From: Ignavibacteriota bacterium
GTDB lineage: Bacteria > Bacteroidota > Ignavibacteria > UBA10030 > UBA6906
Assembly (NCBI GenBank): GCA_963801355.1
Contig: CAWDEM010000004.1
Span: 768,001-832,000 of the forward strand
Length of the DNA stretch: 64,000 bases
Direction: 5' to 3'
A program made the position numbers and the translations under genes. Shown one piece after another: positions 5,450 to 56,793 of this stretch. The notes beneath the pieces are model-generated. The model was not told where the DNA came from. It did no database searches and worked only from the letters and a program-made list of their open reading frames with translations. Every line of letters starts with the position of its first letter. Position 1 is the stretch's first letter.

Positions 5450-5502
5450 TCAGTCCCATGGCTTTGAACACAGATTTGTCATATCTTTCATGAGGTCTCA
5501 AT

Positions 5503-6030: not shown

Positions 6031-6102
6031 GAGGGACCGATTTTGGCAATAGAACATGTACATGGGTATCACTTACTATCCTACTCCCCAGGAGGGACAA
6101 CG

Positions 6103-12522: not shown

Positions 12523-12756
12523 GGCGTTTCCATGGTGAGATGGTGGGGGGTGACTCGTATATAAGAACCTATGGAATCGTCGCGCAAGAATCAATAATCC
12601 CCGTCCACGGTGCGCAGTTTCTTGAATCTTTCCGTCGGAATCTCCCCTTTCGAATTTTCCCTGCAGGAAGTGCTCCTTGACATTCCATCTCCACTGGCGT
12701 ATCATTTATACGATTGCCAGGCCCTGTTTTCACCCTCCCCGGAATCGAGCACGAGC

Positions 12757-26675: not shown

Positions 26676-26946
26676 GATGCTGATGTCCCTCCTGCAGAAG
26701 TCGGGTGTTGTAGCGGTGGATTGGAGAAAGAGCGCGTGATCGCTGGGTACGGCGCACGGGGTCCGGGCCGGGATGGCACGATCGGTGGCCACAATATCGA
26801 CAGATAATTCCAGAAAAGAAACAACGTTGACTCTCGCATGCCCAGGCACTACATTCTAGTGTATCCGGAGTTCACCAGACCGCCGCCGCGTCGTACCAAC
26901 ACTCTACCGTCTTCGAAATCCGGTTTGCGCAAAGCCACCGATATTC

Positions 26947-28026
26947 ATGAGGTGCTGGACTATGAGGCTTAGGATCGTTGTTCCCTGTTTCTTTCTTGGA
27001 GCTCTCGGCCTTTCGTGCGGATCTTCGCTGTTTACTAGAAGCAACGAAGTCTGTGATCCCTACCGGCATGCCGGTGAACCCGGAGGTGCAGTGATGGTAC
27101 TCCGGCAGGATTCGGTGCTCTATGCAGACGCCTTTGGAATTGCGGACCTTGAGGCCGGAACGCCGAACGCGCTCACCACCAACTTCAGGCTTGCCTCGGT
27201 TACCAAGCAATTTACCGCGATGGCTGTGGTAATGCTGGCCGAACGCGGGAAACTGACACTGGAACAACCCCTGACAGACTTCTTTCCCGATTTTGCACCG
27301 GTTGGTCGAACGATCACCTTGAAGCATTTGCTCACGCATACATCCGGCATCGCAGCATATGAGGATGTGATGCCGGAGTCCACCGTCGTCCCCCTGCTCG
27401 ACAGGGATGTGCTTCAACTTCTCAAGAATATTGACAGTACCCGCGGTGCGCCGGGTTCATCGTTCGCCTACAGCAATTCCGGCTTTGCACTGCTCGCCTT
27501 GGTCGTCGAAAGGGTCTCCGGCGAATCCTTTGCCCGCTTTCTGAAGGATAACATCTTTTCGCCCCTGGGGATGGACAACACGGTGGCGTACGAGCGCGGG
27601 GTCTCCGAAGTTCCACAGAGAGCGTACGGGTACTCACCTGCTACAGTCAAGGCGGGACGACCTGCGCTGACAGACCAGAGCATGACCAGTTCTGTCCTCG
27701 GCGACGGCGGCATCTATTCATCAGTGACCGACTTGCGAAAATGGAATGCAGCGCTTGCCGCTGGCTCTCTCGTGTCCGCACAATCGATGAGCGAAATGCT
27801 CTCACACCACGCAACTATTGAAGAAGGGAGGATCTGGTACGGATATGGATGGTACATGAGGAGTCTTGACGGTATTCCGGCCTATTACCACGGCGGCTCA
27901 ACGGTCGGCTTCCGGACATTCATTCTGCGCATTCCCGATCGTGCTCTGACTGTCATCGCGCTGTTCAACCGATCAGATGTACTCGCGGAGGACATCGGCT
28001 GGAAGCTTGCACGGCTGTACCTCTGA
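26947..28026 (+). CDS. Serine hydrolase, beta-lactamase/class C PBP family, probable lipoprotein
   Basis: SxxK 'ASVTK', 'LLTHTSG', YxN 'YSNSG', 'HGG'; lipobox-like 'LGLSC'. Confidence 0.9.
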   Translation: MRCWTMRLRIVVPCFFLGALGLSCGSSLFTRSNEVCDPYRHAGEPGGAVMVLRQDSVLYADAFGIADLEAGTPNALTTNFRLASVTKQFTAMAVVMLAERGKLTLEQPLTDFFPDFAPVGRTITLKHLLTHTSGIAAYEDVMPESTVVPLLDRDVLQLLKNIDSTRGAPGSSFAYSNSGFALLALVVERVSGESFARFLKDNIFSPLGMDNTVAYERGVSEVPQRAYGYSPATVKAGRPALTDQSMTSSVLGDGGIYSSVTDLRKWNAALAAGSLVSAQSMSEMLSHHATIEEGRIWYGYGWYMRSLDGIPAYYHGGSTVGFRTFILRIPDRALTVIALFNRSDVLAEDIGWKLARLYL

Positions 28027-28055
28027 TGTGATACGGAGCCAGGGAGACTTTTGGT

Positions 28056-31000
28056 ATGAGAAGATTCCTCGTTGTCCTACTTGTGAATTCCTTCATGCTG
28101 TCAATCGCGGCCGGACAGGCCGGTACACTCCTCAACAGTTTTCGCTCTCCCGCTGACTCGCTCCGTCCATGGGTCTATTGGGTCTGGATGGACGGGAACT
28201 TGAGCCGGGAAGGGATTACCGCTGACCTTGAAAGCATGAAACATGCCGGCATCGGCGGAGCCATCATTATGGAGGTGAATGTCGGCATCCCGCAAGGACC
28301 GGTGAAATTTATGAGTCCCGAGTGGCGGCGGCACTTTGGGCATGCTATCGCTGAAGCGCAACGACTGGGTCTGGAGATTACGCTGATCACCGGCCCCGGG
28401 TGGACAGGAAGCGGCGGGCCGTGGGTGAAACCGGAACAGGGAATGCAGCACATTGTGTCAAGCGCCACGATCATGCGCGGACCGAAACTTTTTGCGGATA
28501 CGCTGTCACAGCCCGTACGACGCCCTGCCTTCTTCGGCGACGGAGTACTTCCTCCCGGGCAGGAAAAAGAGAAGAACAAATTCTATCGGGATGTCGCTGT
28601 CCTCGCATACCCGACACCCACGGGTAACGACCGTATCGCGGGCATCGACGAAAAGGCGCTCTACGTGCGGGCACCGTATTCCTCCATGACCTCGGTGCCG
28701 TCATACATTCCCTCCTTCGCAGACTATCCCCCCACCGCCCCTGGGGGGGCCATCGACACGTCTCACATCGTGAATCTCAGTAACCATCTGGATGCCAAGG
28801 GAGTCTTCACCTGGGATGTGCCCGGGGGGAACTGGACGGTCTTACGGCTCGGCCGGACGAGCACCGGCGCGAACACCCGTCCGGCGCCGACGCCCGGATT
28901 AGGATTGGAGTGCGACAAGCTGGACACTGCGGCACTCAATGTTCACTTTGATGCCTTTGTCGGGGCCTTACTGCGGGAAATCGGCCCGCGGGATGCATCC
29001 GCCACAGGCGGCTGGAAAATGCTGCACATTGATAGCTGGGAAATGGGTGCACAGAACTGGACGGGAGCCTTCCGGACGGAATTCAGAGCGCGCCGCGGCT
29101 ACGATCTACTGAGCTATCTCCCTATTCTGACCGGTTCAGTGGTCGAGTCCCGCGAAGTCTCCGAACGATTCCTCTGGGACCTGCGCCAGACAATCCAGGA
29201 ACTCATTCTGCAGAATCATGCAGGACATCTCAGGGAATTGGGACGCCGGAATGGATTCGGCATATCCATCGAGCCTTACGATATGACGCCCTGCGCCGAT
29301 ATGAGCCTGGGCTCCATTGCGGACGTCCCCATGTGCGAGTTCTGGCTTTACGGCTTCAATACCAGTTACAGTGTCATTGAGGCATCGTCTGTAGCTCATA
29401 CCTGTGGCAGGACTGTCGTAGCGGCTGAGGCGTTTACATCAAGCGACGTTGAACACTGGGATGCCTACCCCGGCTCGATGAAAGTGCTGGGGGATTGGGC
29501 TTTCTGTGCAGGTGTGAACCGTTTCGTTTTCCATCGGTATCAGCATCAACCGTGGCCTGCATTGCGCCCGGGGATGACGATGGGCCCATACGGCATACAT
29601 TGGGAGCGGACCCAGACGTGGTGGGATATGGCCCCCGCGTACCACGCCTATCTGTCACGATGCCAGCTCATGCTGCGACAGGGTCTTCCTGTAGCGGATG
29701 TGTGCTATCTGGTCCCGGAGGGTGCCCCGCAGGTATTCCGTCCGCCGTCATCGGCAGTGCGTGGCAATCCCCCCGATCGGCGTGGGTACAATTTCGATGG
29801 CTGTGCCCCGGAAATCCTCATCGCACGCATGTCAGTTGAAAATGGTGATCTCGTCCTCCCTGATGGAATGCGGTATCGCGTTCTGGTACTTCCTGAACGG
29901 GCGACTATGACGCCGGCGTTGCTGCGGAAAGTCAGCAGTCTTGTCGCAAAAGGAGCAACGGTCATCGGACCACGACCACGGAAGTCGCCCGGTCTGTCAG
30001 GGTATCCGCACTGTGATCGGGAGGTCGCTGAAATCGCCGGTCAAGTGTGGGGGGAATGCAACGGCATGGATGTTACAGAGCATACCTTTGGAAAGGGTCG
30101 GGTGATCTGGGTGCGGTCGACCGGAACTCCATACGATCCGGAGAGGCAGGATACGGTCGGGAGAGAACCATGCCGCATCATGCGGCTCGAAGCTTCGGGC
30201 ACGGCCATGTACGCCGGCAACTTCCGGAAGCGCACATCAGCGGATGGGATGGGTGAGCCGGAAGCAGAGCAATATGGTGACTTCGCTCTGGTCGAAAAGG
30301 TCTTGCGCAATAAAGGTGTGCAACCGGACTTTGAAACCGATGCATCGCTGCGCTACACACACAGAAGATATGGTGAAACCGAGATCTATTTTGTGGCGAA
30401 CCCTGAAGAGCGTGTGGTCACTGCCGCGTGCGTCTTCCGCGTAAGCGGAAAACAGCCGGAACTCTGGGATCCGGTGGAGGGAATTTCGCGCAAGCTGCCG
30501 GAGTTCGTGGACGTGCACGGCAGGACATCGATTGTTCTCCGTTTTGAGCCGCATCAATCCATCTTCATCGTGTTTGCAGAGACTCCCGGAAAGGAGCAAC
30601 ATGCCGGCAGCAATTTTCCGCGAATGCACAATGCCTTGAAGCTGGATGGCCCGTGGCAGGTAACCTTTGACACTGTGTGGGGTGGCCCCGGAACAATCAC
30701 ATTCCGGCATCTCGATGATTGGAGCAAACGGAAGGAAAAAGGGGTGAAGTTCTTCAGCGGGACAGCTACGTACAGAAAGACCTTTGATTTGCCTGTGGCA
30801 ATCTCCGCTCACCTCTCCGATGGGGGACACAGTCGGGCCGGCGTCTGGCTGGATGTCGGCAAGGTCATGAATCTCGCTCGTGTACGTCTGAACGGACATG
30901 ATCTTGGGGTACTCTGGACGTCCCCGTGGCGGTTGGACGCACGCTCTGCACTCACGCCCAAGCACAATATCCTGGAAATCTCCGTTGCGAATCTCTGGCG

Positions 31001-31214
31001 CAACAGGCTGGTGGGAGACGAACGTCTGCCGCCGGATGCCGACTTTGCCCCAGGCGGGAATATCCTTCGCTGGCCTGAATGGCTTGTGAAAGGAGAACGC
31101 CGTCCGACCACCGGGCGTTTTTCCTTTGCCAGCTGGAAACATTTCGGCAAGGACTCGCCACTACTCCCTTCCGGCTTGATCGGACCGGTGCGCATTCTTC
31201 TTGCATATCCATGA
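28056..31214 (+). CDS. GH106 family glycoside hydrolase (alpha-L-rhamnosidase-like), secreted
   Basis: 'RPWVYWVWMDGN', 'ITADLESM', 'GPGWTGSGGPW', 'GLECDKL', 'DSWEMG', 'AAEAFT', 'NLWRNRLVGD', 'SGLIGPV'. Confidence 0.9.
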   Translation: MRRFLVVLLVNSFMLSIAAGQAGTLLNSFRSPADSLRPWVYWVWMDGNLSREGITADLESMKHAGIGGAIIMEVNVGIPQGPVKFMSPEWRRHFGHAIAEAQRLGLEITLITGPGWTGSGGPWVKPEQGMQHIVSSATIMRGPKLFADTLSQPVRRPAFFGDGVLPPGQEKEKNKFYRDVAVLAYPTPTGNDRIAGIDEKALYVRAPYSSMTSVPSYIPSFADYPPTAPGGAIDTSHIVNLSNHLDAKGVFTWDVPGGNWTVLRLGRTSTGANTRPAPTPGLGLECDKLDTAALNVHFDAFVGALLREIGPRDASATGGWKMLHIDSWEMGAQNWTGAFRTEFRARRGYDLLSYLPILTGSVVESREVSERFLWDLRQTIQELILQNHAGHLRELGRRNGFGISIEPYDMTPCADMSLGSIADVPMCEFWLYGFNTSYSVIEASSVAHTCGRTVVAAEAFTSSDVEHWDAYPGSMKVLGDWAFCAGVNRFVFHRYQHQPWPALRPGMTMGPYGIHWERTQTWWDMAPAYHAYLSRCQLMLRQGLPVADVCYLVPEGAPQVFRPPSSAVRGNPPDRRGYNFDGCAPEILIARMSVENGDLVLPDGMRYRVLVLPERATMTPALLRKVSSLVAKGATVIGPRPRKSPGLSGYPHCDREVAEIAGQVWGECNGMDVTEHTFGKGRVIWVRSTGTPYDPERQDTVGREPCRIMRLEASGTAMYAGNFRKRTSADGMGEPEAEQYGDFALVEKVLRNKGVQPDFETDASLRYTHRRYGETEIYFVANPEERVVTAACVFRVSGKQPELWDPVEGISRKLPEFVDVHGRTSIVLRFEPHQSIFIVFAETPGKEQHAGSNFPRMHNALKLDGPWQVTFDTVWGGPGTITFRHLDDWSKRKEKGVKFFSGTATYRKTFDLPVAISAHLSDGGHSRAGVWLDVGKVMNLARVRLNGHDLGVLWTSPWRLDARSALTPKHNILEISVANLWRNRLVGDERLPPDADFAPGGNILRWPEWLVKGERRPTTGRFSFASWKHFGKDSPLLPSGLIGPVRILLAYP

Positions 31215-31276
31215 GATTGGTCGAATCCTTGCAGTTTGATCGTTGATTTTCGCTGATAGATGGCGTACGTTGTAGT

Positions 31277-32221
31277 ATGAATGCTTCGGGCAATGTATTC
31301 AATATCCAGCGGTTTTCCATCCACGATGGCCCGGGAATACGGACAACGGTGTTTCTCAAGGGATGCACGTTGGCCTGCTTCTGGTGCCATAACCCCGAGG
31401 GAAGACACACATATACAGAAATTCAGTTCTTCCCTGAACGGTGTATTACATGCGGCGAGTGTGTGCGGGTGTGTCCTCACTCCGCACATGAGATTCGCGA
31501 CGGTGTGCATGTCTTTCGCCGTGATCTGTGTCAGAATCACGGAGCATGTGCAGAAGCATGCTGTGCGCAGGCACTGCAGCTCGCCGGTCAGGTCATGAGC
31601 GTTGCACAGGTCATGGAGGAGGTCCTCCGGGACAGGCCATTTTACGAGTCCTCGGGCGGAGGAGTGACACTTTCCGGCGGCGAGCCGTCGTTGAGCAGCT
31701 CCTTTGCACTGGAAATCCTCAGACAATGCAAGAATCATCATCTGCACACCGCCATTGAAACGTGCGGCGATTGCCCGTGGTCGTTCCTGGAGCCGCTTCT
31801 GCCCGTGACCGATCTGATCATGATGGACGTCAAGCATATGTCGGGAGACCGCCACCGGTCGGCAACAGGCAGGTCCAACGAGCGCATCCTGGACAATGCC
31901 CGCACACTCGCTTCGGGTACTGTACCTGTCATATTCCGGACACCGGTTGTGCCGACCGTGAACGACTCTCCGGAAGATATCAGAGAGATTGCTTCGTTCG
32001 TGAAGGAACTGATAGATCTGCGAAAGGCCTACGGCATCGGGATGGACGGTGACGCCGGCATCACGTACGAACTCCTGACGTTTCACAGGCTGTCGTCTGA
32101 CAAATACCGGAGCCTCGGACTGGAGTACAAGGCCTCAGGCATGGACTCTCCATCAAAAGAACAGATGCAGATGCTCGCAGGCGTGGCGCGCAGTCTCGGG
32201 ATTGCTGTCAGCGTCCGGTAG
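31277..32221 (+). CDS. Glycyl-radical enzyme activating enzyme (radical SAM) with ferredoxin insert
   Basis: 'IQRFSIHDGPGIRTTVFLKGCTLACFWCHNPE'; insert 'CITCGECVRVC' and 'CQNHGACAEAC'; 'GGGVTLSGGEP', 'TAIETCG'. Confidence 0.95.
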   Translation: MNASGNVFNIQRFSIHDGPGIRTTVFLKGCTLACFWCHNPEGRHTYTEIQFFPERCITCGECVRVCPHSAHEIRDGVHVFRRDLCQNHGACAEACCAQALQLAGQVMSVAQVMEEVLRDRPFYESSGGGVTLSGGEPSLSSSFALEILRQCKNHHLHTAIETCGDCPWSFLEPLLPVTDLIMMDVKHMSGDRHRSATGRSNERILDNARTLASGTVPVIFRTPVVPTVNDSPEDIREIASFVKELIDLRKAYGIGMDGDAGITYELLTFHRLSSDKYRSLGLEYKASGMDSPSKEQMQMLAGVARSLGIAVSVR

Positions 32222-32263
32222 GCGCGCAGAACAACCGCACGGAACCATGAACGAAGGGAATCA

Positions 32264-34498
32264 ATGCACACACCTCCGATGAACGAACTCACTTATCGAC
32301 AGCGCGTCGATATGCTTCGTGCGACGAAGCTACGTCACACAGAAGAAAAGAGGCGTGCAATTGGTTCCCTCGATATGGACGATCTCCCCATCATGCTTCC
32401 GCCGCCGGAGATACGCAAGATCGTGCGTATTGTCAGCGGTTCCGGCATCACCATCGCCGATGCGCTCTTCAGTAACTTCGTGCCCAGGAGTAATCATCCC
32501 GGTGGCGGATTCTTTGGCGCCCGGGCGTGCGGTGAAAATTTCCACGCCCTGCTGGATACTCATCCGCCGTACATTGATCCGCTTAGCTCCCTCGCAGGGG
32601 GCTACATGGCCAGCTTCCTTGCCTATCGCGAACCCGCGTGGAATCCGGATTTCGACTACTCACACCTGTCTGAAGGACAGACCACGTACAGGCTGCACCA
32701 CGGCATCGGTGCGGTCCAGCACTTCTGCCAGGACATGACGATTGGTTTTTCCCTCGGGTGGGGCGGTCTCCTCGACAAGATCCGTGATTACCGCGTCGTC
32801 AATACGGACGAGGAGTCCACCGAACTCTATGATGGACTCGAACACTGTGTGCTGGGGATTCAGCACTGGATTTCACGGCATGCCCTGGCTGCACGTGAAA
32901 TGGCGGAACGGGAGGAGCGTCCCGAGCTGCGCCGCAATCTGCTGCAAATGGCGGATATCAATGCGGCGCTGGTCAACAGGCCGCCTGCAACCTTCCGGGA
33001 GACCTGTCAGTGGATGTTGTGGTACCAGCTCGCCGCAAAGGTGTACAACATGAGCGGCTCGCTCGGACGCATCGACCAGTTCCTGTATCCCTATTTTGAG
33101 AGGGAAAAGAGCCAGGGGACGCTGACGGACGAGGAGACGATCTTTCATCTGTGCTGTTACTTCCTCATGGATACCAGTTATACACAGCTGGGGGGTCCTG
33201 ATGCCGCGGGCAATGACACGACCAATGCCCTTTCGCATCTCGTGCTGGAAGCTGCACATCGACTCAAAATCCCGGTGAACGTGGGAGTGAGTGTGGGGAA
33301 GAATGTGGATCCTGCTCTGGTACGTCGCGGCGTTGAGATGTTGTTTGAGGACAAGACCGGCATCCCGAAGTTTCTGGGCGTAGATCGCACAAGCGAGGGT
33401 TTTGCCCGCAATGGATATCCTATCGCGCTGGGCAGGGAGCGGGCGTACTCCGGTTGCCACTGGTGTGCGATCCCCGGACGCGAGTATACAGTGAATGACT
33501 GTGTGAAGATCAATCTCCCCGCTGTGTTCGACGTTGCCTTTCGCGACATGATGGCCGATCAGTCCCGGACGCCGGGCATCCTCCTTCTCCGGGAGAGATT
33601 CGAGCATCACCTGCGCCGCAGTGTTGAAGTCATCGCGGAAAGCCTGGATTTTCATATGGACCATATGTACCGGGTATTTCCGGAGCTCATTCTGGACCTT
33701 TTGTGTTCCGGTCCGATCGAAAAAGGCCGGGATGCATCGCATGGCGGAGTGGAGTTCTATAATCTGTGCGTCGATGGAGCAGGCCTGGCAACCGTGGCTG
33801 ATTCGTTCGCCGCCGTCGAGCAGCGCGTTGAACGGGAGAGCAAGCTCTCCTGGCACGCACTGCTGCAACTGCTGGACGGCAATTGGGCGGGAACGGAAGG
33901 GGAGCGCATGCGGCAGATGATGAAGAGCATTCCCCGATTCGGGAGCGGCGGATCATGTGCCGACGAGTACGGACAATTTGTCGCCCGCATGTTCACCACG
34001 CTGGTGAAGGAAAAGGCTACGCCGCACGGGTTCAATATGATTCCCGGACTGTTCTCCTGGGCTGCGAATATCCTCATGGGGAAAGATGTGGGTGCCACAC
34101 CCAACGGACGCTATGCCGGAGCGCCGATCTCACACGGGCCCAATCCGGATCCCGGCTTCCGCAAAGATGCCGCTCCGACCGCTCTTGCTCTCGCGGTCGC
34201 CTCCATCCAGCCGGGGTACGGAAACACGGCGCCGATGCAAATTGAGCTTGACCCCGGTCTCTCAAAAAGCAGGGAGGATATTGACAAGGTCGTCAGTCTG
34301 ATCACGACACATTTTGAGCTTGGTGGAACGCAGATCAATATGAATATCCTCGATAAGAAAGCCATCCTGGAAGCACATGCGGATCCTGCCAGTCATCCGG
34401 ATCTTGTTGTGCGCGTGACCGGTTTCAGCGCGTTCTTTGCCAGCCTGTCGCCGGAGATGCGGCAGATCGTCGTCGATCGCATCATCGCAGAAGGTTGA
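32264..34498 (+). CDS. Glycyl radical enzyme (PFL-like superfamily), uncharacterised type
   Basis: Gly loop 'LVVRVTGFSAFF', 'SLGRIDQFLYPYF', 'ATPNGR'; Cys loop 'YSGCHWCAIPG'; adjacent activase. Confidence 0.92.
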   Translation: MHTPPMNELTYRQRVDMLRATKLRHTEEKRRAIGSLDMDDLPIMLPPPEIRKIVRIVSGSGITIADALFSNFVPRSNHPGGGFFGARACGENFHALLDTHPPYIDPLSSLAGGYMASFLAYREPAWNPDFDYSHLSEGQTTYRLHHGIGAVQHFCQDMTIGFSLGWGGLLDKIRDYRVVNTDEESTELYDGLEHCVLGIQHWISRHALAAREMAEREERPELRRNLLQMADINAALVNRPPATFRETCQWMLWYQLAAKVYNMSGSLGRIDQFLYPYFEREKSQGTLTDEETIFHLCCYFLMDTSYTQLGGPDAAGNDTTNALSHLVLEAAHRLKIPVNVGVSVGKNVDPALVRRGVEMLFEDKTGIPKFLGVDRTSEGFARNGYPIALGRERAYSGCHWCAIPGREYTVNDCVKINLPAVFDVAFRDMMADQSRTPGILLLRERFEHHLRRSVEVIAESLDFHMDHMYRVFPELILDLLCSGPIEKGRDASHGGVEFYNLCVDGAGLATVADSFAAVEQRVERESKLSWHALLQLLDGNWAGTEGERMRQMMKSIPRFGSGGSCADEYGQFVARMFTTLVKEKATPHGFNMIPGLFSWAANILMGKDVGATPNGRYAGAPISHGPNPDPGFRKDAAPTALALAVASIQPGYGNTAPMQIELDPGLSKSREDIDKVVSLITTHFELGGTQINMNILDKKAILEAHADPASHPDLVVRVTGFSAFFASLSPEMRQIVVDRIIAEG

Positions 34499-35619
34499 TT
34501 GGCCATACTTCCCCGGAAATCATGACGACTACCGCCCGTCAGCGATTCCTGCATTACGTCAGGGATCCCGCATCGTCACCGCCGATTGTTTCTCCGTTCC
34601 TTCCACATCCTGATGTTATTAACGCGACGCTGGCCTCCACACGCCTGCCGGTCACGGACGACCCCGTCGCCAATGAAATCAGGCTGGCACAACACCTCGG
34701 CTATGAGCCGATGTTCATGACGGACTGTTCGGGCCTGATCTTCAATTGGCGGATCGATGAGTCACGATCGGATGGTGTGGATGTGGTCCGGACCATCGAC
34801 ACGGAACGGGGTGAGTGGGTGCGCCGGTCGCCAAGAGTCGAAATGCCGTGGAGTGACGAGTCGGGCTGTCCGGTCAATACTCCTCACGATCACGCAATGC
34901 TCGTGTCCGCGTGCGATCAGATCGATGACCGGAACGATGAACTCAGGATGTACTTCCGGACCTGGCGGGAGAAGGTGGGTGAGAACGGCGTCATTGTCCT
35001 GGGGCATCCCCATCCGGCATGGCTTGGCTACCAGATCAGTCCATCGCAGATCTTCTATCAGTGGACGGACGATCGCGAGGTGTACCTGCGCAGCATGGAG
35101 GCCGTGTTCCGTGCTTCCCTGAAGGTGATGGCAATCGCAGTGGAGGAGGGGATCGATTTCATGAGTGATTCCAGCTATGGGCTGGAAATGACGTCCCCGG
35201 CATTGTTTGCGTCGATGGATCTTCCGTATATCCGCGCTTTTGCACAATGGACGAGAGAACACGACAGCCTGTTCTGGTATCACAATTGCGGTTTTACCCG
35301 TCAGCTCATCAAGGATGGCACGTTCAACACACTCGGAGCTGACGTGATTGAGACCATTGCGCCGCCACCGGAAGGCGACAACGATCTGGCGGAGTCGCGT
35401 CGCTGTCTTGATCCGGGCATCTGTTCCAAAGGAAATCTGAATCTTCAAATATTGCGGGATGCTGCGCCGGAACAGATCTCCAGAGAGGTGCGGAACATGG
35501 TACACGCGGTCCGCGGCTTCGCCCACATCCATTCCACGGCGGATGCGGTGCTCCCCGGGACGCCGCCGGAGAATTTCATTACCTTCGTAAACACTGCACG
35601 GGACGCCGCCGGACGATAG
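34495..35619 (+). CDS. URO-D/MtaA-fold protein (not HemE)
   Basis: 'SPALF..DLPYI', 'WYHNCG', 'IETIAPPPEGD.DLAE', 'KGNL', 'GTPPENF'; lacks the HemE 'WxMRQAGR' motif. Confidence 0.8.
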   Translation: MIGHTSPEIMTTTARQRFLHYVRDPASSPPIVSPFLPHPDVINATLASTRLPVTDDPVANEIRLAQHLGYEPMFMTDCSGLIFNWRIDESRSDGVDVVRTIDTERGEWVRRSPRVEMPWSDESGCPVNTPHDHAMLVSACDQIDDRNDELRMYFRTWREKVGENGVIVLGHPHPAWLGYQISPSQIFYQWTDDREVYLRSMEAVFRASLKVMAIAVEEGIDFMSDSSYGLEMTSPALFASMDLPYIRAFAQWTREHDSLFWYHNCGFTRQLIKDGTFNTLGADVIETIAPPPEGDNDLAESRRCLDPGICSKGNLNLQILRDAAPEQISREVRNMVHAVRGFAHIHSTADAVLPGTPPENFITFVNTARDAAGR

Positions 35620-35651
35620 ATACCGGGCGATTCTTTCATCACTGGTGAACT

Positions 35652-36935
35652 ATGAGACACGCATACGCGAACACTCTGTTTCTTTCTCTTCTCATCCTTT
35701 CCTGCGGCAAAAAAAGCGAGATGGTTGAAATCCAGGACTGGAATTTCGGCGGGAGGCCGAACCTGATGGTCTGGCTGCGTCAGAGGACCGAGAGCTTCGA
35801 GGCAACGCATCCAGGAATCAAGGTTGTCCAGAGTGACAAGAGCTGGAACATGATCCGCGAGATCCTGTATACAAGCTTCAGCACCGGGACGGGGCCGGAT
35901 GTTGTGAATACGCACGCCAACTATGCCTCTGAATTCGGTGAAGCGGGCTACTACTATCCCGTGAACAAATTCCCGGATTTCGATTCGGTAAAACAGTGGT
36001 TCGTCCCTCAGCTGTTCGAATCGACACACTACAAAGGCAACTACTACGGTTTGCCGTCAAGCGCCATTGCGTTTGTTCTGGTCTGCAACAGGCAACTCTT
36101 CGACGCAGCACACATGGTGCCTCCGAAAACCTGGTCGGAATTTCGCAGCGCGGCAAAGCGTCTCACCAGGGACACCAACGGCGACGGCCAGATCGACCAG
36201 TTCGGTCTCGTCCTTATAGGCGGCGACAAGGGGGGATTCGCCTACCGTATGGTGCCATTTTTCTACAAGGCGGGAGCCGACTTCATGTCTGACGATCTCA
36301 CGAAGGTGGTGTTCAATTCGCCTGCGGGTGTCGCGGCATTGACGCTGTTCGCTGAAATGTATCAGGTGGATCACTCGATCGCCCCGGGGTTTCTTGCGTA
36401 TGGACATTCCGAATCCAATGACGTGTTTTGCGGCAACAAGGCGGCGATGGCAATCGAAGGCCCCTGGATCAGGGCGATGGTGAATGAGATGAGCCCCGGC
36501 AAAGACGTGTACGTCGTCAGCGTACCTGTTCCTGACAACATGCTTGATCAATACGACACGCTCCCCACCCTGCAGGATATGGTGATGTATTCCATCAACG
36601 CGCAGTCCAAGAACCTGGAAGCTTCGTGGGAGTTTATCAAGTATCTCCGCAACGAAGAGGCCGATATGGCCTGGATCCGGGAAGATCTCGGTGCAATTGC
36701 CACGACACACTCTGCGCTGAACAGCCCTGAAGCGCAGAACATCAAAGATCTGCCCCTTTACATCAATGAACTCAAGCATGCGAGACCGTTGCCTCCTCAT
36801 CCCAAAATCGTCGCACTCACAAGCAATACCTTCACCCCGTTCTGTCAGAAGGCGATCGTCGGTGAGCTGACGCCCAAAGATGCGCTCGACCAGGCCGCCC
36901 GGGAGGCACAGGAGGTCATCGAAGGCACGAAATGA
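35652..36935 (+). CDS. Carbohydrate ABC transporter substrate-binding lipoprotein
   Basis: 'ILSC' lipobox; 'GTGPDV', 'YYGLP', 'PPKTWSE', 'AAMAIEGPW', 'AS WEFIKYL'-type CUT1 motifs. Confidence 0.9.
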   Translation: MRHAYANTLFLSLLILSCGKKSEMVEIQDWNFGGRPNLMVWLRQRTESFEATHPGIKVVQSDKSWNMIREILYTSFSTGTGPDVVNTHANYASEFGEAGYYYPVNKFPDFDSVKQWFVPQLFESTHYKGNYYGLPSSAIAFVLVCNRQLFDAAHMVPPKTWSEFRSAAKRLTRDTNGDGQIDQFGLVLIGGDKGGFAYRMVPFFYKAGADFMSDDLTKVVFNSPAGVAALTLFAEMYQVDHSIAPGFLAYGHSESNDVFCGNKAAMAIEGPWIRAMVNEMSPGKDVYVVSVPVPDNMLDQYDTLPTLQDMVMYSINAQSKNLEASWEFIKYLRNEEADMAWIREDLGAIATTHSALNSPEAQNIKDLPLYINELKHARPLPPHPKIVALTSNTFTPFCQKAIVGELTPKDALDQAAREAQEVIEGTK

Positions 36936-37801
36936 AAAAAGCTACTCCTTATCTGCTTCTGCTCCCTGCACTGCTGTTTACGGCATTTGTTCTGGGCTAT
37001 CCCCTCGTTCAGAATCTCGTGAACAGCGTGAGGGACGTGAGCCTGGTGAGTGGAGTGGGAGGATGGGTTGGACTCTCCAACTACGCCCACGTTCTGGATG
37101 ACCCGCTCTTCCTGAGTTCTTTGCGGAACACACTGATCTACGCGCTGGTTGGCACCCTCCTGGCTCTGGTGATCGGGCTCGGGTTTGCCCTCCTGCTGAA
37201 CATGAAAATCGGCCGGATCACAACCATCGCCTCTTTTCTCTATACCATACCATGGGTCATCTCGCCGGTGGTGGCGGGTTTTTCCTGGAAGTGGCTCCTG
37301 AACGACCATTTCGGAATTATCAACTACTGGCTCTCCTCGGCAGGCCTCATCGACCCCGGCACCTCATGGCTCGGAGATCCCCGGACCGTCCTTGCCTGCG
37401 TCATCTTCGCCAGAGTGTGGCAGTTCTATCCGTTTGCGATGGTGATGTTCCTTGCGGGGCTCCAGGCTATTCCCCTGGAAGAATATGAGGCTGCTGCTGT
37501 CGATGGAGCCACGATGGTCCGGAAGTTTTTCCATATCACACTTCCCAATCTGAAACCGGTGTTCTCTGTGCTCCTCGTTCTCGGTGTGATCTGGAGCTTC
37601 AATGATTTCAATATTGTGTTTGTCATGACGCGTGGGGGGCCGATGAATGCCTCCATGGTCCTTCCCGTACTCGTCAGAGAATTCTCGTTCGTCTTTTTTG
37701 ATCTCGGTAAAGGTTCGGCGCTCTCCATTATGACCTTCATGCTGCTTGTCTCCCTCTCCTTCCTGTATCTCAGAGTCCTCTCCGGGAAGGAATCCGCATG
37801 A
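36932..37801 (+). CDS. Carbohydrate ABC transporter permease
   Basis: EAA loop 'LAGLQAIPLEEYEAAAVDGA..FFHITLP'; 'MTRGGP'. Confidence 0.93.
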   Translation: MKKATPYLLLLPALLFTAFVLGYPLVQNLVNSVRDVSLVSGVGGWVGLSNYAHVLDDPLFLSSLRNTLIYALVGTLLALVIGLGFALLLNMKIGRITTIASFLYTIPWVISPVVAGFSWKWLLNDHFGIINYWLSSAGLIDPGTSWLGDPRTVLACVIFARVWQFYPFAMVMFLAGLQAIPLEEYEAAAVDGATMVRKFFHITLPNLKPVFSVLLVLGVIWSFNDFNIVFVMTRGGPMNASMVLPVLVREFSFVFFDLGKGSALSIMTFMLLVSLSFLYLRVLSGKESA

Positions 37802-38610
37802 AACGATATGCTCTCACGGCCCTGATCATTCTGTTGTCTCTTCTTGTGTTGCTTCCGTTCCTGTGGATATTCTCCACTTCCCTGAAGCCGCTGTCGGAGG
37901 TGAACCGGTATCCCCCGGAGTGGTTCAGTTTGAACATGAGCCTGAAACCGTACAGGGACATGTTCTTCTTTCTGCCGTTTTCCATTTATGCGTTGAACAG
38001 CATGATCGTGGCGTCATCGGCGACCATCATTACGCTACTCGTTGGAAGTCTGGGGGCGTTTGCGTTCTCCAGGTTCCAGTTTGCAGGTAAACGCATCTTC
38101 CTTCTGGTGTTTCTTCTCTCGCAAATGCTGCCCGGCGCTTCCGTCATCATTCCGCTGTTCCAGCTGCTGAAAGAGATCGGGCTCTATGATACGCATGTCG
38201 GATTGATTCTTGTCCATTCGTCCGTCTTGTTGCCGTTTGTCATCTGGTTGCTGTACGGCTTCTTTCAGGGTATCCCCAGGGAGATAGAAGACGCGGCGCT
38301 GATTGACGGATGCTCAAGATTGAGTGCTCTCCGCAGGGTCATATTGCCGCTGGCCCTCCCCGGCATCGGGGCTACGGCACTGTTTGCTTTCCTCGGCTCC
38401 TGGAACGAGTTTTTCTTTGCCCTGATATTGACATCGTCGGATGCCACAAAAACCATCCCCGTCGGCATAGGTCTTTTTGTCGGGGAATACAACGATCTCT
38501 GGAACCAGATGGCCGCGTCGGCGGTGCTGTTCAGTCTGCCACCGTTAGTGCTTTTTGCCCTCATGCGAAAGACATTCGTTAAAGGGCTGGCAGCGGGAGC
38601 GGTGAAATGA
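37798..38610 (+). CDS. Carbohydrate ABC transporter permease
   Basis: 'FFQGIPREIEDAALIDG', 'SWNEFFFA', 'FVKGLAAGAVK'. Confidence 0.93.
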   Translation: MKRYALTALIILLSLLVLLPFLWIFSTSLKPLSEVNRYPPEWFSLNMSLKPYRDMFFFLPFSIYALNSMIVASSATIITLLVGSLGAFAFSRFQFAGKRIFLLVFLLSQMLPGASVIIPLFQLLKEIGLYDTHVGLILVHSSVLLPFVIWLLYGFFQGIPREIEDAALIDGCSRLSALRRVILPLALPGIGATALFAFLGSWNEFFFALILTSSDATKTIPVGIGLFVGEYNDLWNQMAASAVLFSLPPLVLFALMRKTFVKGLAAGAVK

Positions 38611-38658
38611 AGGGATTGATGAGAAGTGGATTTGACCACTGAAACCCAAGGAGGGGTC

Positions 38659-40155
38659 ATGCAGAGAACGATGCGGTTCGCCATTTGCGCCTCGGTGTTG
38701 TCGGTCGGGGCGAACGTTGCCTTGTGTCAGGGCGTCGTCATCGGACGCGACGATGTGACGTTGATGTTTGCCATCGGGCAAGCTGTGACATATCACCATG
38801 ACACATTGACCACATCCGCGGATATCGGTGCGCCGGGTGGCCCGGCAAGCTGGGATTTCACCGGCCTCACAACCCAGTTCGTTGAGACACGGACAGGTGT
38901 GGCTGTACAGTCCACGCTGTATGCTGCCGGGTTCCCTCAGGCCACACACGCCCTTCTTGATCCAGCACTTGCCATGCGCCTGAATACCGGTTCTCTTGGA
39001 TGGGCAACGCTGACGTCCCCCCAGGCATACTATTACTATAGTATAGGCGATGACCTGAACTACTACGGCGTTCAAGGAAACGGGATTGGATTCCTCGACA
39101 GTTCACCTGGCACGCCCATTCCTTTTTCAGCCCGGTGGTTTGGTCTGCCCTCGGCGATCGAGTATCGCTTCCCCGTCGAACTGTCAAAGAGCTGGTCCTT
39201 CGATTATGTCGACTCGCTTGTCGGTACCGCCACGTTGCCCGGTTTCCCCGTCCCCCTGTCGTTGACAATGGGCGATCACTACTCCGTCGCGTGTGAAGTG
39301 GACGCCTACGGCACACTCACGTTGCCCGGTGGGACCACGCGGGAGGCGTTGCGCATTAAGAGAGTGAGCACAAAAAACAACAGTCTGGTGGAAGCCGCGT
39401 ACACTATTGTGACAAGGAATGGGGCCGCTGTGCAATTGAAGGTGAACGATCCTTCCGCGACCAGCGGTGCCGTTTCAGTGAGCGGTATACGATGGACGGA
39501 AGGTGTGCCTGACGAACTGGTCCCGGTGCAACTGGCGAGTTTCACGGCAACGCAGCAGGAAGGAAGCACTGTTGATCTCGCGTGGACCACTCTCTCCGAG
39601 ACCAACAATTTCGGATTCTACGTTCAGAGAAAAGACTCAGAGGAGGGAGAGTTCGCGGAATTGACGGGTGCTTTTATCCCCGGCCACGGCACGACCATTG
39701 TTCCCCGGAACTACACCTATCGCGATGTTACCGGGGGGATCGGTGCGCGGTGGTACCGGCTGAAGCAAGTTGACCTTGATGGCACCGCTCATCTGTCGGA
39801 GCCGGTGCAGGTGAACGCTGTAACGGCTGTCCCGGCTATTGCTCCCGCGGTGTATGCGCTGTCGCAGAACTACCCGAACCCTTTCAATCCTTCGACAACG
39901 ATCCGCTACAGTCTGCCATATCGCTCTCATGTCAGACTGACGGTCTTCAATGCCCTCGGCCAGCAGGTTGCACAACTGGTCGACGGTGAAGTGCAGGGCG
40001 GGCAACATGAGGTACAGTTCGATGCGTCAGGCCTTGCCGGCGGCGTGTTGTACTACAGAATGCAGGCACGCCCTCTGGACTCCACCGTCGGGCGTGAGTC
40101 GGGGAGCGGAGGCGGGACTTTTCTCGAGACGAAGCAGCTGATACTTCTGCGGTGA
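38659..40155 (+). CDS. Secreted protein with T9SS type A sorting domain
   Basis: Signal peptide; 'VPVQLASF..LAWTT.SETNNFGFYVQR..YRLKQVDLDG' Ig module; CTD 'QNYPNPFNPSTTI'. Confidence 0.87.
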   Translation: MQRTMRFAICASVLSVGANVALCQGVVIGRDDVTLMFAIGQAVTYHHDTLTTSADIGAPGGPASWDFTGLTTQFVETRTGVAVQSTLYAAGFPQATHALLDPALAMRLNTGSLGWATLTSPQAYYYYSIGDDLNYYGVQGNGIGFLDSSPGTPIPFSARWFGLPSAIEYRFPVELSKSWSFDYVDSLVGTATLPGFPVPLSLTMGDHYSVACEVDAYGTLTLPGGTTREALRIKRVSTKNNSLVEAAYTIVTRNGAAVQLKVNDPSATSGAVSVSGIRWTEGVPDELVPVQLASFTATQQEGSTVDLAWTTLSETNNFGFYVQRKDSEEGEFAELTGAFIPGHGTTIVPRNYTYRDVTGGIGARWYRLKQVDLDGTAHLSEPVQVNAVTAVPAIAPAVYALSQNYPNPFNPSTTIRYSLPYRSHVRLTVFNALGQQVAQLVDGEVQGGQHEVQFDASGLAGGVLYYRMQARPLDSTVGRESGSGGGTFLETKQLILLR

Positions 40156-41276
40156 CACCTCCGCGATCGCACACGACCGGGACGGGTTTCTGGTCGGTAG
40201 TGTCCCAGGACCCTCTGTTTGACCTCGAGATAGTAGGAATAGTTGTCGTATGTCACATCCGGCGGGACCCTGTGATCGACGCAGGGAATATACCGCCCCT
40301 GATCTATCAGGGGCCGCAGGCGATCCATTTCCGCATCGATGGCATTCTTGCCCGCAATGAGGGCGTGTTTGTCCACACCGCCGAAGAGGAGGATCGCGGG
40401 CAGATCTTTCCTCAGCTTGAATACATCAGTATGAGCAACTTCGAGGGGGAACATGCAGTTGATGCCTGCTTCGAGCCAGCCGGGTGCGAGCTCGTGGATG
40501 CGCCCGTCGCAATCCAGCACGTTGACGTCAATACCATGCTCCGTCAGTGCGCGGGTAATTCGGCTGTAGCGGGGGATCATCATCTCTTTGAAAAGACGGG
40601 GAGAGAGCAGCGGGCCCCTGTTGTAGCACATATCCTCCCACCACCAGGCAAGGTCCACACCATGGACCGGCAGCGCCCGATCGATCAATGTGAGAGTTAG
40701 CTCGATAAGGTGGTCCATCATTTCCTCGACCCATGTCCGGTCGGTCATCAGGGCGATGGAAATGCCCTCGACGCCCATCCAGTTTCTCAGCCAGCCATAG
40801 AGTGAGCCGGCATGGAAAAAGACAGGCGATCCATCGACTTGCGCCTGCCGCAGCAGTGCTTCTACGTCGCCAATCCTCCCGTTCGTGTCCGGATCAAGAC
40901 GCTCCCGGCGTAAGCGCTCCCAGTCCTGCCGGGTTTCCAGCCCGAACTTGACATAGCGCGGCATGCTCGAGTGTTCGGAGAACACCTCGCAGATGTTTCC
41001 TTCATCGTCCCTGATCAATTCGCGGTCCCCATGCCTGGAGAGAACAGTCCGCTCAAAGGCGGGAAACAGCCCGTTTGATATCGGAAGCTGTTTGAACAGC
41101 GTGATGCCATCCAGGCCGAAGTGTTCCTCGGCGGTGGCATCTGTCGTCACTGTGACGGGCAGCCCCTGTGAGTGCCAGGCGGAAAGAGTTTCGCTCCAGT
41201 AGCCGAACTCCACGTTTGGAATCCGGTCGGTGCTCTGACCCTTGAGAACTGCAAGTATTTGTTTGCGGACGGTCAC
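40053..41276 (-). CDS. URO-D/MtaA-fold protein (second, divergent copy)
   Basis: GTG start with GAAGG RBS; 'EFGYW.ET', 'GWLRNWMG', 'WWEDMCYNRGPLLSP', 'DCDG', 'GGVDK', 'PCVDHRVPPDV'. Confidence 0.83.
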   Translation of the reverse strand: MTVRKQILAVLKGQSTDRIPNVEFGYWSETLSAWHSQGLPVTVTTDATAEEHFGLDGITLFKQLPISNGLFPAFERTVLSRHGDRELIRDDEGNICEVFSEHSSMPRYVKFGLETRQDWERLRRERLDPDTNGRIGDVEALLRQAQVDGSPVFFHAGSLYGWLRNWMGVEGISIALMTDRTWVEEMMDHLIELTLTLIDRALPVHGVDLAWWWEDMCYNRGPLLSPRLFKEMMIPRYSRITRALTEHGIDVNVLDCDGRIHELAPGWLEAGINCMFPLEVAHTDVFKLRKDLPAILLFGGVDKHALIAGKNAIDAEMDRLRPLIDQGRYIPCVDHRVPPDVTYDNYSYYLEVKQRVLGHYRPETRPGRVRSRRCHRRSISCFVSRKVPPPLPDSRPTVESRGRACIL

Positions 41277-41461
41277 GGAACCTTCAGGAGGAGAGTAGAG
41301 ATCGGGCGGCACAAGTCGCATCCACCATGCAAAGGTACGCAGTCTCGATACAAACCTCAAGGAGCGGGTGTGCGGCAGTCGCATTCGTGATTCTTCTCCC
41401 CTATATTGGTGGAGTCACCGTGATTCATAGAACGTGGTCTACGAGATTGAAGGAAAGAACG

Positions 41462-42994: not shown

Positions 42995-43058
42995 TCCAGA
43001 AGCTCTACAGCATGTCGTTTTGGTCTATCGGGATATTCAGCACCAAGGAGAGTCTGAT

Positions 43059-43607
43059 ATGCGCACATGGATCTTTGCCCTTGCACTCATTTGCATAGCA
43101 ACGGCCGCAGAGGCCCAGCTGACCCGCACAGAAGTACTACGAGCCACGACGCCGCTCGACGACGCGAAACTCAATAGCGACGCGGTGCCGGAGGTCTCCA
43201 TCACAGCGGGGCAATTTCGACGCATTCTCGTCGTGCGTGAGAAACATCAAACCGATCTTCTCCAGGGCCTCGAGCGGATAATTGCACAGCACAAGATACG
43301 CAATGCGGTCATCCTCTCGGGGATCGGGTCGGTGCGCAGCATTCACTATCATACTGTCAGCAATGGCACGTTCCCCTCAAAGACCATCGACGTCAAAAAT
43401 CCTGTAGCCCCGGCTGATATCACGGGTATGAATGGTTATGTCATCGATGGCAGGGTCCATGCGCATGTGACATTTGCGGACGCGGACAGGGCATTCGGGG
43501 GGCATCTGGAGCCGGGGACCGAAGTGTTCACGTTTGCCATCGTGACACTTGGAGAGCTGCAGGAGGGCATAGACCTCTCGCGGGTTGACGACAAAACCTA
43601 CCGGTAG
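43059..43607 (+). CDS. DUF296/PPC-domain protein with signal peptide
   Basis: AAGGAG RBS; signal 'MRTWIFALALICIATAAEA'; 'ILSGIGSV', 'VHAHVTF', 'FGGHLEPG'. Confidence 0.85.
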   Translation: MRTWIFALALICIATAAEAQLTRTEVLRATTPLDDAKLNSDAVPEVSITAGQFRRILVVREKHQTDLLQGLERIIAQHKIRNAVILSGIGSVRSIHYHTVSNGTFPSKTIDVKNPVAPADITGMNGYVIDGRVHAHVTFADADRAFGGHLEPGTEVFTFAIVTLGELQEGIDLSRVDDKTYR

Positions 43608-56551: not shown

Positions 56552-56793
56552 TGGGGCGGGCGCTAGTTGACAATGCATAATGAGTTCAGTAGATTCGGGC
56601 GATGTACATCGGTCTCCATGCGGTGGACGGGGCGGTTGCCGTATGAGACCTGAGGGCGCAAGTCCGATTTTTGCCTCTGCTCTTACACTCCCATCTCTCG
56701 TACGCGATCACCCGCTGGTTCACCAAGCGACCTGAGCATTCAATCCCCGATCAGGTGGAATGGAACAGAATCGAAACAGAACAAGAGGCCGCC

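Follow-up and report, generated by a model that had tools for sequence, protein, structure and literature searches.

The 744-residue protein encoded on the forward strand at positions 32264 to 34498 of the DNA analyzed here (64,000 nucleotides of contig CAWDEM010000004.1 from an Ignavibacteriota bacterium, a stretch that we call the window) is an intact glycyl radical enzyme (GRE) with its own activating enzyme (activase), and a member of the pyruvate formate-lyase (PFL)-like division of the GRE superfamily. Its catalytic loop carries Cys-x-Trp at the place where the solved GREs to which we aligned it carry the Cys-x-Glu of their G-C-V-E motif, and this Trp is shared by a large group of relatives. 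The locus represents a GRE branch that is widespread and uncharacterized, differs in its catalytic loop and probably acts on carbohydrates. That the protein is a real and active GRE of this Cys-x-Trp branch we regard as very likely, its radical activity being predicted from conserved features.

Assignment to the superfamily comes from family profiles, an AlphaFold2 model and Foldseek comparison of that model with solved structures. The open reading frame (ORF) matches the Pfam PFL-like family (PF02901) over residues 151-606 with E 2.8e-79 and Gly_radical (PF01228) with E 6e-12. The model is of high confidence (mean predicted local distance difference test [pLDDT] score 92.4, predicted TM-score [pTM] 0.92) and puts C398 at the tip of one beta-hairpin and G720 at the tip of another. 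Its best structural match is PflD (8yjo_A; E 1.7e-37, query TM-score [TMq] 0.80, 22% identity over about 740 columns), followed by propanediol and glycerol dehydratases, CutC, HypD, HplG and YbiW, with TMq values of 0.74-0.81 to solved GREs. The protein combines a PFL-like barrel and C-terminal glycyl radical domain with an R-V-x-G-[FY] loop, the Cys of the Cys loop and a dedicated activase, all of them features of the superfamily. It nevertheless scores under every NCBIfam equivalog and subfamily cut-off: 249.6 versus 678.2 for PFL2-3, 202.9 versus 1000 for HpsG, 179.9 versus 1100 for HypD, 158.9 versus 1050 for CutC, 111 versus 1100 for indoleacetate decarboxylase, 100.5 versus 1150 for HPAD and 83.2 versus 994.2 for PFL (TIGR01255).

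The Cys loop, AYSGCHWCAIPG (A-Y-S-G-C398-H-W400-C401-A-I-P-G, with G397 before the Cys), occupies 33443..33478 on the forward strand, the codons of C398, H399, W400 and C401 being 33455-33457, 33458-33460, 33461-33463 and 33464-33466. The Gly loop, R717-V-T-G720-F, occupies 34412..34426 (+), with G720 at 34421-34423; the forward translation of 34403-34429 is LVVRVTGFS. An earlier note on this DNA had reported SGCHWC at the expected Cys-loop position together with an intact RVTGF, and that reading holds: both loops translate within the one GRE ORF, with C398 on the catalytic Cys. The interval that it gave for the Cys loop (33445-33480) is 2 nucleotides out of codon register. Comparison with solved GREs was made by both sequence and fold alignment. 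HMMER alignment to PflD (8yjo), HpsG (6lon), glycerol dehydratase (1r8w) and propanediol dehydratase (5i2a) sets C398 against the catalytic Cys and W400 against the Glu of G-C-V-E, and a profile built from 20 family members reproduces this register, with C398 as the catalytic Cys and W400 at the Glu of Cys-x-Glu.

We followed the loop through samples of homologs at increasing distance. Among the 120 closest homologs (72-100% identity, from 1717 matches at E ≤ 1e-20), a regular expression located the loop in 118, reading G-C-H-W in 117 and G-C-Q-W in one; because the loop recurs in 118 of these 120, the string is not a product of chance. The position three residues after the catalytic Cys (+3) was Cys in 111/118, Ser in five and Asn in two. 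A second sample comprised the best 80 of 550 confirmed relatives, on contigs from one genome per species, and gave a readable loop in 73 loci (five had no usable ORF, and in two the regular expression had no match): 66 read G-C-H-W and seven G-C-N-W, so that Trp was present in 73/73, and the +3 position was Cys in 13, Ser in 29, Met in 11, Phe in 10, Leu in six, Tyr in two, and Thr and Val in one each. Of the 75 ORFs examined, 70 have the Gly loop V-R-V-T-G-F. The third sample was drawn from 50%-identity representatives of an exhaustive HMMER search (4762 matches, E ≤ 0.001); its alignment holds the query and the 85 listed representatives of at least 600 residues. Over these 86 rows the residue two after the Cys (+2) is Trp in 26, Glu in 54, Asp in three, and His, Tyr and Gln in one each. 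The 26 Cys-x-Trp rows carry His (6), Asn (8), Gln (3), Phe (6), Pro (1), Gly (1) or Tyr (1) at +1, and Cys at +3 in just two.

These counts sort the three unusual residues of the loop, whose conservation the earlier note had proposed to check by aligning homologs. The alignments mark the Trp at +2 as a deep, conserved trait of its branch and no one-off (Trp in 26/26 rows and 73/73 loci, against Glu in 54/54 rows of the Cys-x-Glu type), which supports the suggestion that Trp in place of Glu points to different chemistry. The His at +1, offered as a second pointer, survives in part: it is conserved with Asn as its alternate in the sub-branch (66 and 7 of the 73 loci), but across the whole Cys-x-Trp branch it occurs in 6/26 rows, a distribution by which it is a sub-branch character interchanging with Asn and does not define the branch. 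It may tune the chemistry within the sub-branch. The second Cys, C401, had been taken as a third pointer, and this the counts overturn (13/73 loci, 2/26 representatives); nor is it adjacent to the catalytic Cys as in PFL. Some sequences that are 80-98% similar around the loop bear Ser or Asn there, and no Cys of the branch other than C398 reaches 88% conservation. Because it is replaced in 60/73 loci C401 is dispensable, and its distribution is that of a recent variant, predicted to have no essential catalytic role.

Phylogenetic trees place the 26 Cys-x-Trp rows together. A FastTree tree of the 86 rows splits them from all other rows with support 99, and an IQ-TREE quick tree computed with the Cys-loop columns removed recovers the identical split with SH-aLRT 100; the trees are unrooted and show a split, not a direction of change. 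By these reconstructions the Cys-x-Trp proteins are a large, monophyletic branch of PFL-like GREs, separate from the Cys-x-Glu enzymes. Within the branch there are three sub-groups, with loops G-C-[HN]-W (13 rows), G-C-[QH]-W-[MW] (two) and G-C-[FPGYQ]-W-[YF] (11), and both programs nest the window protein in the 13-row group. At least 550 relatives occur in species-level genomes of more than 12 phyla, including Bathyarchaeia; homologs with intact frames at 46-98% identity are spread over many phyla and are usually labeled 'pyruvate formate lyase' or 'formate C-acetyltransferase' in databases. One representative, from outside the window (P0124, 1052 residues, loop G-C-N-W-F), is an activase-GRE fusion with a radical SAM domain at residues 16-227; it is a single case and may be an assembly or gene-calling artefact.

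Several residues beyond the Trp characterize the branch, and the markers W400, D412, E474 and T719 are all present in the window protein. D412 (33497..33499, +), 14 residues after C398, is Asp in 26/26 Cys-x-Trp rows versus 13/54 Cys-x-Glu rows. It aligns with an Asp of glycerol dehydratase (1r8w) that also lies 14 residues past the catalytic Cys and that we take to bind substrate. Counted from Cys433 and Glu435, the residue numbers given in the accessible part of a superfamily review (June 2026), this counterpart would be Asp447. E474 (33683..33685, +) is Glu in 26/26 Cys-x-Trp rows, the Cys-x-Glu rows having Thr, Ser, Asp and others, and T719 (23/26) faces Ser or Ala in the Cys-x-Glu rows. 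Further branch-specific residues are E407 (23/26), Y408 (23/26) and W166 (24/26), and an N-terminal segment present in the branch is missing from the other rows (the G34 column is filled in 25/26 and gapped in 51/54). Common to both types are C398, G720, the motifs G-A-T-P-x-G-R and D-S-x-x-A, and H153; within the branch the catalytic Cys is kept in 26/26 rows and the radical Gly in 25/26. H153 (32720..32722, +; His in 23/26 Cys-x-Trp and 51/54 Cys-x-Glu rows) aligns with the His of G-Q-G-H-I-I-I-D in PflD; from this conserved column, rather than from a direct alignment of glycerol dehydratase or HypD at the site, it would be the beta-1 His (His164 in glycerol dehydratase, His160 in HypD). The feature to follow is the Trp together with D412 and E474, and not the His at +1 or the second Cys.

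The accessible passages of the same review recognize seven GRE classes; according to them Cys-x-Glu is kept by each of the six C-O eliminases and each of the three isomerases, two loop cysteines occur only in PFL and TdcE, and the GRE decarboxylases have varied active sites and mechanisms. In the eliminases, the passages state, the Glu hydrogen-bonds a substrate hydroxyl and is thought to deprotonate it, giving a ketyl radical from which the neighboring group is expelled; His164 of glycerol dehydratase protonates the leaving hydroxyl, and in PflD and YbiW the Glu deprotonates the C2 hydroxyl to open the ring. The IslA variant E470Q and Glu436 variants of HypD are inactive (IslA and HypD papers, in the parts accessible). 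A Cys-x-Trp group is not mentioned in the passages accessible from the review and from the AARE, IslA and HypD papers, and the literature that we searched by full text yielded no characterized Cys-x-Trp GRE. Because the Trp is conserved, the branch is supported and all characterized eliminases and isomerases keep Cys-x-Glu, we think it fair to infer a different catalytic arrangement.

Set against known systems, the protein is closest to PflD and YbiW (8yjo, 8id0, 8id7, 8yjn), isomerases that open the rings of 1,5-anhydromannitol-6-phosphate and 1,5-anhydroglucitol-6-phosphate and that are its best sequence matches (phmmer E 5e-55, profile E 7.7e-95). It shares with them the Cys and Gly loops, the beta-1 His and an activase with a ferredoxin-type insert, and resembles them in that they act on sugar rings in a sugar-uptake context (review, accessible passages). 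It differs in having about 22% identity, in being some 40-80 residues shorter with its first 150 residues outside the Pfam PFL-like match, and in carrying Trp where the same passages describe a Glu bonded to the C2 hydroxyl; their substrates, again from those passages, are sugar 6-phosphates, whereas the importer next to the window GRE is of the ATP-binding cassette (ABC) type, for an unphosphorylated solute. The GRE 1,2-eliminases (1r8w, 5i2a/5i2g, CutC, HypD, IslA and HpsG) share the fold (TMq 0.74-0.81) and the Cys, Gly and beta-1 His positions, but they keep the Cys-x-Glu Glu, essential where tested according to the accessible parts of the enzyme papers, and fall opposite the Cys-x-Trp rows in the tree split. 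In short, the window protein has the beta-1 His of the eliminases and isomerases and lacks the Cys-x-Glu motif that defines them. PFL and TdcE belong to the same superfamily and have two adjacent cysteines, both essential (accessible literature passages); the window GRE has one conserved Cys, its loop reading C398-H399, and PFL structures align with it over the C-terminal third only. Aminoacyl radical enzymes (AAREs) are defined by replacement of the radical Gly with Ala, Ser or Thr (review and AARE paper, accessible passages), unlike the window protein, which keeps G720. The protein likewise falls outside the GRE decarboxylases and X-succinate synthases: the decarboxylase models score far under their cut-offs, and BSS and MASS are among its weakest structural and sequence matches, although small-subunit genes (as in HPAD and BSS) were not specifically searched for.

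The GRE gene stands within a run of eight co-directional, tightly spaced forward-strand genes (28056-40155). The run opens with a GH106-family glycoside hydrolase (alpha-L-rhamnosidase family; 28056..31214, 1052 residues, Pfam Glyco_hydro_106 E 4.6e-191), which ends 62 nucleotides upstream of the activase. As a clue to the substrate (rhamnosides) this gene was considered and rejected, not being a trait of the GRE family. The activase (31277..32221, +; Pfam Radical_SAM, Fer4_12 and Fer4) is a radical SAM enzyme with a ferredoxin-type insert, clears the cut-off of NCBIfam TIGR02494 (PFLE_PFLC; 174.35 bits) with 344.5 bits and lies 42 nucleotides upstream of the GRE. Past the GRE and a URO-D-fold gene come a sugar-type solute-binding protein of an ABC importer (35652..36935, +; Pfam SBP_bac_1 E 3.6e-34), whose best solved relatives are sugar binders (5ci5 at E 2.3e-33, 9xf5, 4qrz and GacH) and whose N-terminus has a putative lipoprotein-like signal (lipobox), and two ABC permeases (36932-37801 and 37798-38610, +; both Pfam BPD_transp_1) with 4-nucleotide overlaps with their neighbors. 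Fifteen nucleotides further on, a 509-residue protein (38626..40155, +) closes the run; it matches no family at E 1e-5, with a weak hit to Por_Secre_tail, a C-terminal sorting domain of the type IX secretion system (T9SS; E 3.4e-05, 24.5 bits versus a 27-bit cut-off). A beta-lactamase-family (esterase-type) gene (26947-28026) precedes the run. A scan of 26500-43200 gave 17 terminator-like sites versus 13.2 expected and two promoter-like sites versus 8.1 expected, which is uninformative for the limits of the operon.

The URO-D-fold protein is called as 374 residues from a TTG at 34495 (34495..35619, +); translation probably begins at the ATG at 34522, which matches the start position of most homologs listed, and the apparent 4-nucleotide overlap between the GRE stop and this start is probably an artefact of ORF calling. 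Pfam URO-D matches its C-terminal half only (E 5.2e-13), and NCBIfam models of MtaA and CmuA match weakly (26-31 bits versus cut-offs of 235-400). The AlphaFold2 model (pLDDT 87.5) resembles human UROD (TMq 0.63; UROD structures 0.57-0.63) and a Methanosarcina mazei methyltransferase (4ay7/4ay8, 0.61); by sequence there is no close solved relative, the best match in the PDB having E 0.0034. At least 85% of 18 relatives retain a motif, H263-x-C265-G, that we take to resemble the zinc motif of MT2. Among those relatives no second conserved Cys for a zinc site was found, and the protein falls outside HemE and MtaA/CmuA proper. A divergent second URO-D-fold ORF (40053..41384, -; 443 residues, Pfam URO-D E 8.4e-10) runs convergent with the operon and adjoins an MFS_2 sugar (glycoside-type) transporter (41327-42994, +; E 2.1e-63), and one related locus (L016) has two extra URO-D-fold genes past its cassette; in these bacteria sugar transporters seem to be repeatedly accompanied by URO-D-fold paralogs.

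The 80 related loci of the second sample are all metagenome-assembled genomes or metagenome-derived records, and come from Ignavibacteriota, Bacteroidota, Chloroflexota (32 loci), Planctomycetota (12), Bathyarchaeota (5), Latescibacterota, Poribacteria, Spirochaetota, Verrucomicrobiota, Lentisphaerota, Bacillota, Acidobacteriota and others. The activase adjoins the GRE in 37 of the 61 with both flanks available. The full cassette (activase, GRE, URO-D-fold protein, binding protein, permease, permease) recurs at 51-84% identity in L001-L005, L007, L014, L016, L026 and L044, the permease copies being 57-84% identical, and in partial form in L006, L010 and L056. Directly downstream of the GRE, 13/80 loci carry a URO-D ortholog; counting just the 70 that have 1.3 kb or more of sequence past the GRE, 12 do. 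Clustering the 743 flanking ORFs brought out recurrent GFO/IDH/MocA oxidoreductases (13 loci), PfkB (6), ROK, MR_MLE, GH29, GH127, GH130, SDR, sulfatase and alpha/beta-hydrolase esterases. A Pfam search of 105 more same-strand neighbors (at least 180 residues, no more than 3.5 kb upstream or 2.5 kb downstream, outside the named clusters) added GH2, GH10, GH38 (two loci), GH95, GH99, GHL6, FGGY kinases (two loci), UxaE, UxuA, D-lyxose isomerase, xylose-isomerase-like barrels, SIS, further URO-D genes and one MTTB gene (L051). The neighborhoods of these GREs are biased to carbohydrate metabolism and have no single pathway in common. The GRE is present in 12 of 41 genomes of the window's relatives (its own included; three of the four others of the same genus), and is an accessory gene.

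We tentatively favor the following account as a whole, though we hold it slightly short of probable: a Cys-x-Trp GRE that cleaves a C-O bond of an imported neutral carbohydrate, with Trp in the place of Glu. The activase would install a radical on G720, which would generate the C398 thiyl radical as in all GREs, and C398 would remove one hydrogen atom from a sugar-type substrate. W400 would pack against this substrate or hydrogen-bond it through the indole NH, taking the place of the Glu base, and H153 and D412 would carry the acid/base work, possibly along with E407, E474 or H399. The adjacent ABC importer would supply a neutral carbohydrate, or a derivative of one, in unphosphorylated form; its radical C-O cleavage (dehydration or ring-opening isomerization) would then give a deoxy-keto product, and in this lineage the co-transcribed URO-D-fold protein may handle that product, or the substrate beforehand. 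Taken singly, a carbohydrate-type substrate is the likelier part, and one that we believe reasonably probable: the GH106 gene, the sugar-type binding protein and the two permeases of the operon point to it, as do the recurrence of the cassette, the carbohydrate genes near related GREs, and PflD and YbiW, the closest solved relatives by both sequence and fold, which act on sugars. Because the GRE sits in a sugar-uptake operon, the locus probably encodes an undescribed oxygen-free step of sugar breakdown. C-O cleavage as the type of reaction is a conjecture in which we place limited trust.

A number of observations weigh against this account. The pocket placement of W400, H399, C401, H153, D412 and E474 comes from alignment to solved homologs and is predicted to that extent, and loss of the Glu base speaks against simple eliminase chemistry as much as for a relocated base. 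E474 lies, in the AlphaFold2 model, in a loop between helices 439-471 and 475-478 and not on a barrel strand; a search of the accessible part of the HypD paper for six residue types turned up none with a number in the 500s, the substrate-channel section of the review, as far as accessible, offers no mapping for it, and the residue may be structural or line a channel. The nearest annotated relatives of the URO-D-fold protein are methyltransferases and a decarboxylase, not sugar enzymes, and the loci that have this partner are all Ignavibacteriota, Bacteroidota or unclassified (0/32 Chloroflexota, 0/12 Planctomycetota, 0/5 Bathyarchaeota). None of the 80 loci has a GH106 ortholog beside the GRE, the lone match (L072) being weak, 24% identical and on the opposite strand, and the gene context is heterogeneous, with many housekeeping or unrelated flanking genes (SecA, UvrA, PriA, TldD and MiaB-like).

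The sequence and context data do not separate C-O cleavage from C-C cleavage or decarboxylation, or from cleavage of an ether. Were the substrate a sugar acid or keto-sugar undergoing PFL- or decarboxylase-like C-C cleavage or decarboxylation, with the URO-D-fold partner as a cofactor-free decarboxylase in the manner of true uroporphyrinogen decarboxylase, a Glu that deprotonates a hydroxyl would be unnecessary and the missing eliminase base would be accounted for; the sugar-acid and keto-sugar genes near related GREs (MR_MLE, UxuA, UxaE and GFO/IDH/MocA), uroporphyrinogen decarboxylase as the top structural match of the URO-D fold, and the variety of active sites and mechanisms among GRE decarboxylases (review, accessible part) fit such a reaction. 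We consider it improbable, given that the decarboxylase and PFL models score far under their cut-offs (the 111, 100.5 and 83.2 quoted above), that the nearest solved relatives are eliminases and isomerases, that the importer is of the neutral-sugar CUT1 type and that the URO-D partner is limited to certain lineages. An equally improbable course is that the substrate is methylated or ether-linked (a sugar methyl ether, a compound with methoxy groups or some other ether), that the GRE cleaves the ether and that the URO-D-fold protein is a metal-dependent alkyl or methyl transferase of the MT2 type (MtaA-like). MtaA and CmuA methyltransferases are the protein's only NCBIfam matches, its fold matches 4ay7/4ay8 as well as UROD, its H263-x-C265-G is kept among relatives, an MTTB-family gene flanks the GRE in L051, and PflD and YbiW demonstrate the opening of a C-O-C ether ring by a GRE (review, accessible passages). 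Such a system is nonetheless hard to reconcile with the lack of a corrinoid protein gene beside the GRE in the family scans of the window or among the neighbors scanned, of a second conserved Cys for zinc in the URO-D-fold relatives and of the partner itself in most loci, and with methyltransferase scores that are all far under cut-off.

The loop itself raises the question of whether C398, H399 and C401 work jointly, in a new radical or thiol chemistry of several residues that resembles that of the PFL Cys-Cys pair. C401 is present in 111/118 close homologs and His or Asn holds +1 throughout the sub-branch, and with two-Cys loops known only in PFL and TdcE (review, accessible passages) such a system would be new. 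Replacement of C401 by Ser, Met, Phe, Leu, Tyr, Thr or Val in 60/73 loci, its absence from 24/26 representatives, the Ser or Asn at this position in sequences 80-98% similar around the loop, the lack of any other conserved Cys in the branch and its place at +3, not adjacent to C398, leave very little probability for this; PFL-like two-thiol chemistry is unlikely because the second Cys is not conserved. Least credible of all, and in our judgment barely worth entertaining, is a decayed, non-catalytic GRE relative that has lost its base and with it the radical function. It would explain why the Glu essential in IslA, HypD and CutC (accessible parts of the papers) is gone, but not a full-length ORF with Gly loop, Cys loop and intact activase, a Trp that is strictly conserved rather than drifting, homologs with intact frames in many phyla at 46-98% identity, and a high-confidence model.

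GREs perform the hard oxygen-free bond cleavages of anaerobic metabolism, and each newly characterized clade has led to a new pathway (choline to trimethylamine, hydroxyproline, sulfonates and anhydro-sugars). The present branch is widespread in bacteria and archaea, is labeled pyruvate formate-lyase and lacks the residue deemed indispensable in the eliminase and isomerase schemes. Assignment of its substrate would fill a gap in anaerobic sugar processing by uncultured polysaccharide degraders (Ignavibacteriota, Anaerolineae, Planctomycetota and Bathyarchaeia), and would also test the need of the Cys-x-Glu glutamate for GRE C-O chemistry. This locus contributes the finding that C401 is not conserved, a set of branch-specific residues, and the restriction of the URO-D partnership to certain lineages. 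A more far-reaching proposal, speculative and on the unlikely side, is that the branch is an eighth functional GRE class with a new type of reaction on unphosphorylated sugars that needs no Glu base (radical deoxygenation, or ether or C-C scission): the Trp would give the substrate a platform or shield the radical, H153, D412 and E474, as relocated acid/base groups, would carry out the proton chemistry, and a URO-D-fold metalloenzyme would be the obligate second step in the FCB group (Ignavibacteriota and Bacteroidota), within an undescribed and widespread route of anaerobic sugar catabolism in soils and sediments and in archaea (Bathyarchaeia).

Some further observations concern GREs in this and other genomes. 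The genome of the window (4.8 Mb in eight contigs) has one other GRE, of the Cys-x-Glu type (contig C8, 2096389-2099694, with G-C-V-E and R-V-A-G-Y). A second GRE lies upstream of the Cys-x-Trp GRE in two related loci, L004 (3086-5443 ahead of 9001-11220) and L057 (1356-3701 ahead of 3839-6001); both second copies are about 25-26% identical to the query, and the L004 copy matches Pfam PFL-like over its full length, the L057 copy from profile position 156 only. A relative genome (G007, C7:33602-35800) has a 44%-identical GRE match in a 1116-residue open frame with three in-frame TGA codons, which may be a broken gene, a fusion or a case of another reading of TGA. In a Lentisphaerota locus (L070, 3758-7597, +) the GRE is part of a 1279-residue frame, with about 560 residues before the query-matching part and about 690 before the Pfam match, these matching no Pfam family; the ORF may have been called too long, or the protein may be extended at its N-terminus. 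Four Chloroflexota loci (L021, L027 [4085-4909], L030 and L034) share a conserved protein of about 271-288 residues, without a Pfam match, between the GFO/IDH/MocA genes and the activase-GRE pair.

Elsewhere in the window there are other glycan genes: a heparinase II/III-like gene (10483-12705, -), a GH3 gene (47495-49624, +) and a gene for a protein with a cellulase N-terminal Ig-like domain (46127-47299, -). T9SS C-terminal sorting domains occur in the proteins encoded at 6043-7275, 18501-20984 and 56671-58638. A hybrid two-component regulator of 1413 residues (58848-63089, +) combines Reg_prop, Y_Y_Y, HisKA, HATPase_c, a receiver domain and an AraC helix-turn-helix; hybrid regulators of this Reg_prop/Y_Y_Y/AraC type control polysaccharide utilization loci in Bacteroidota.

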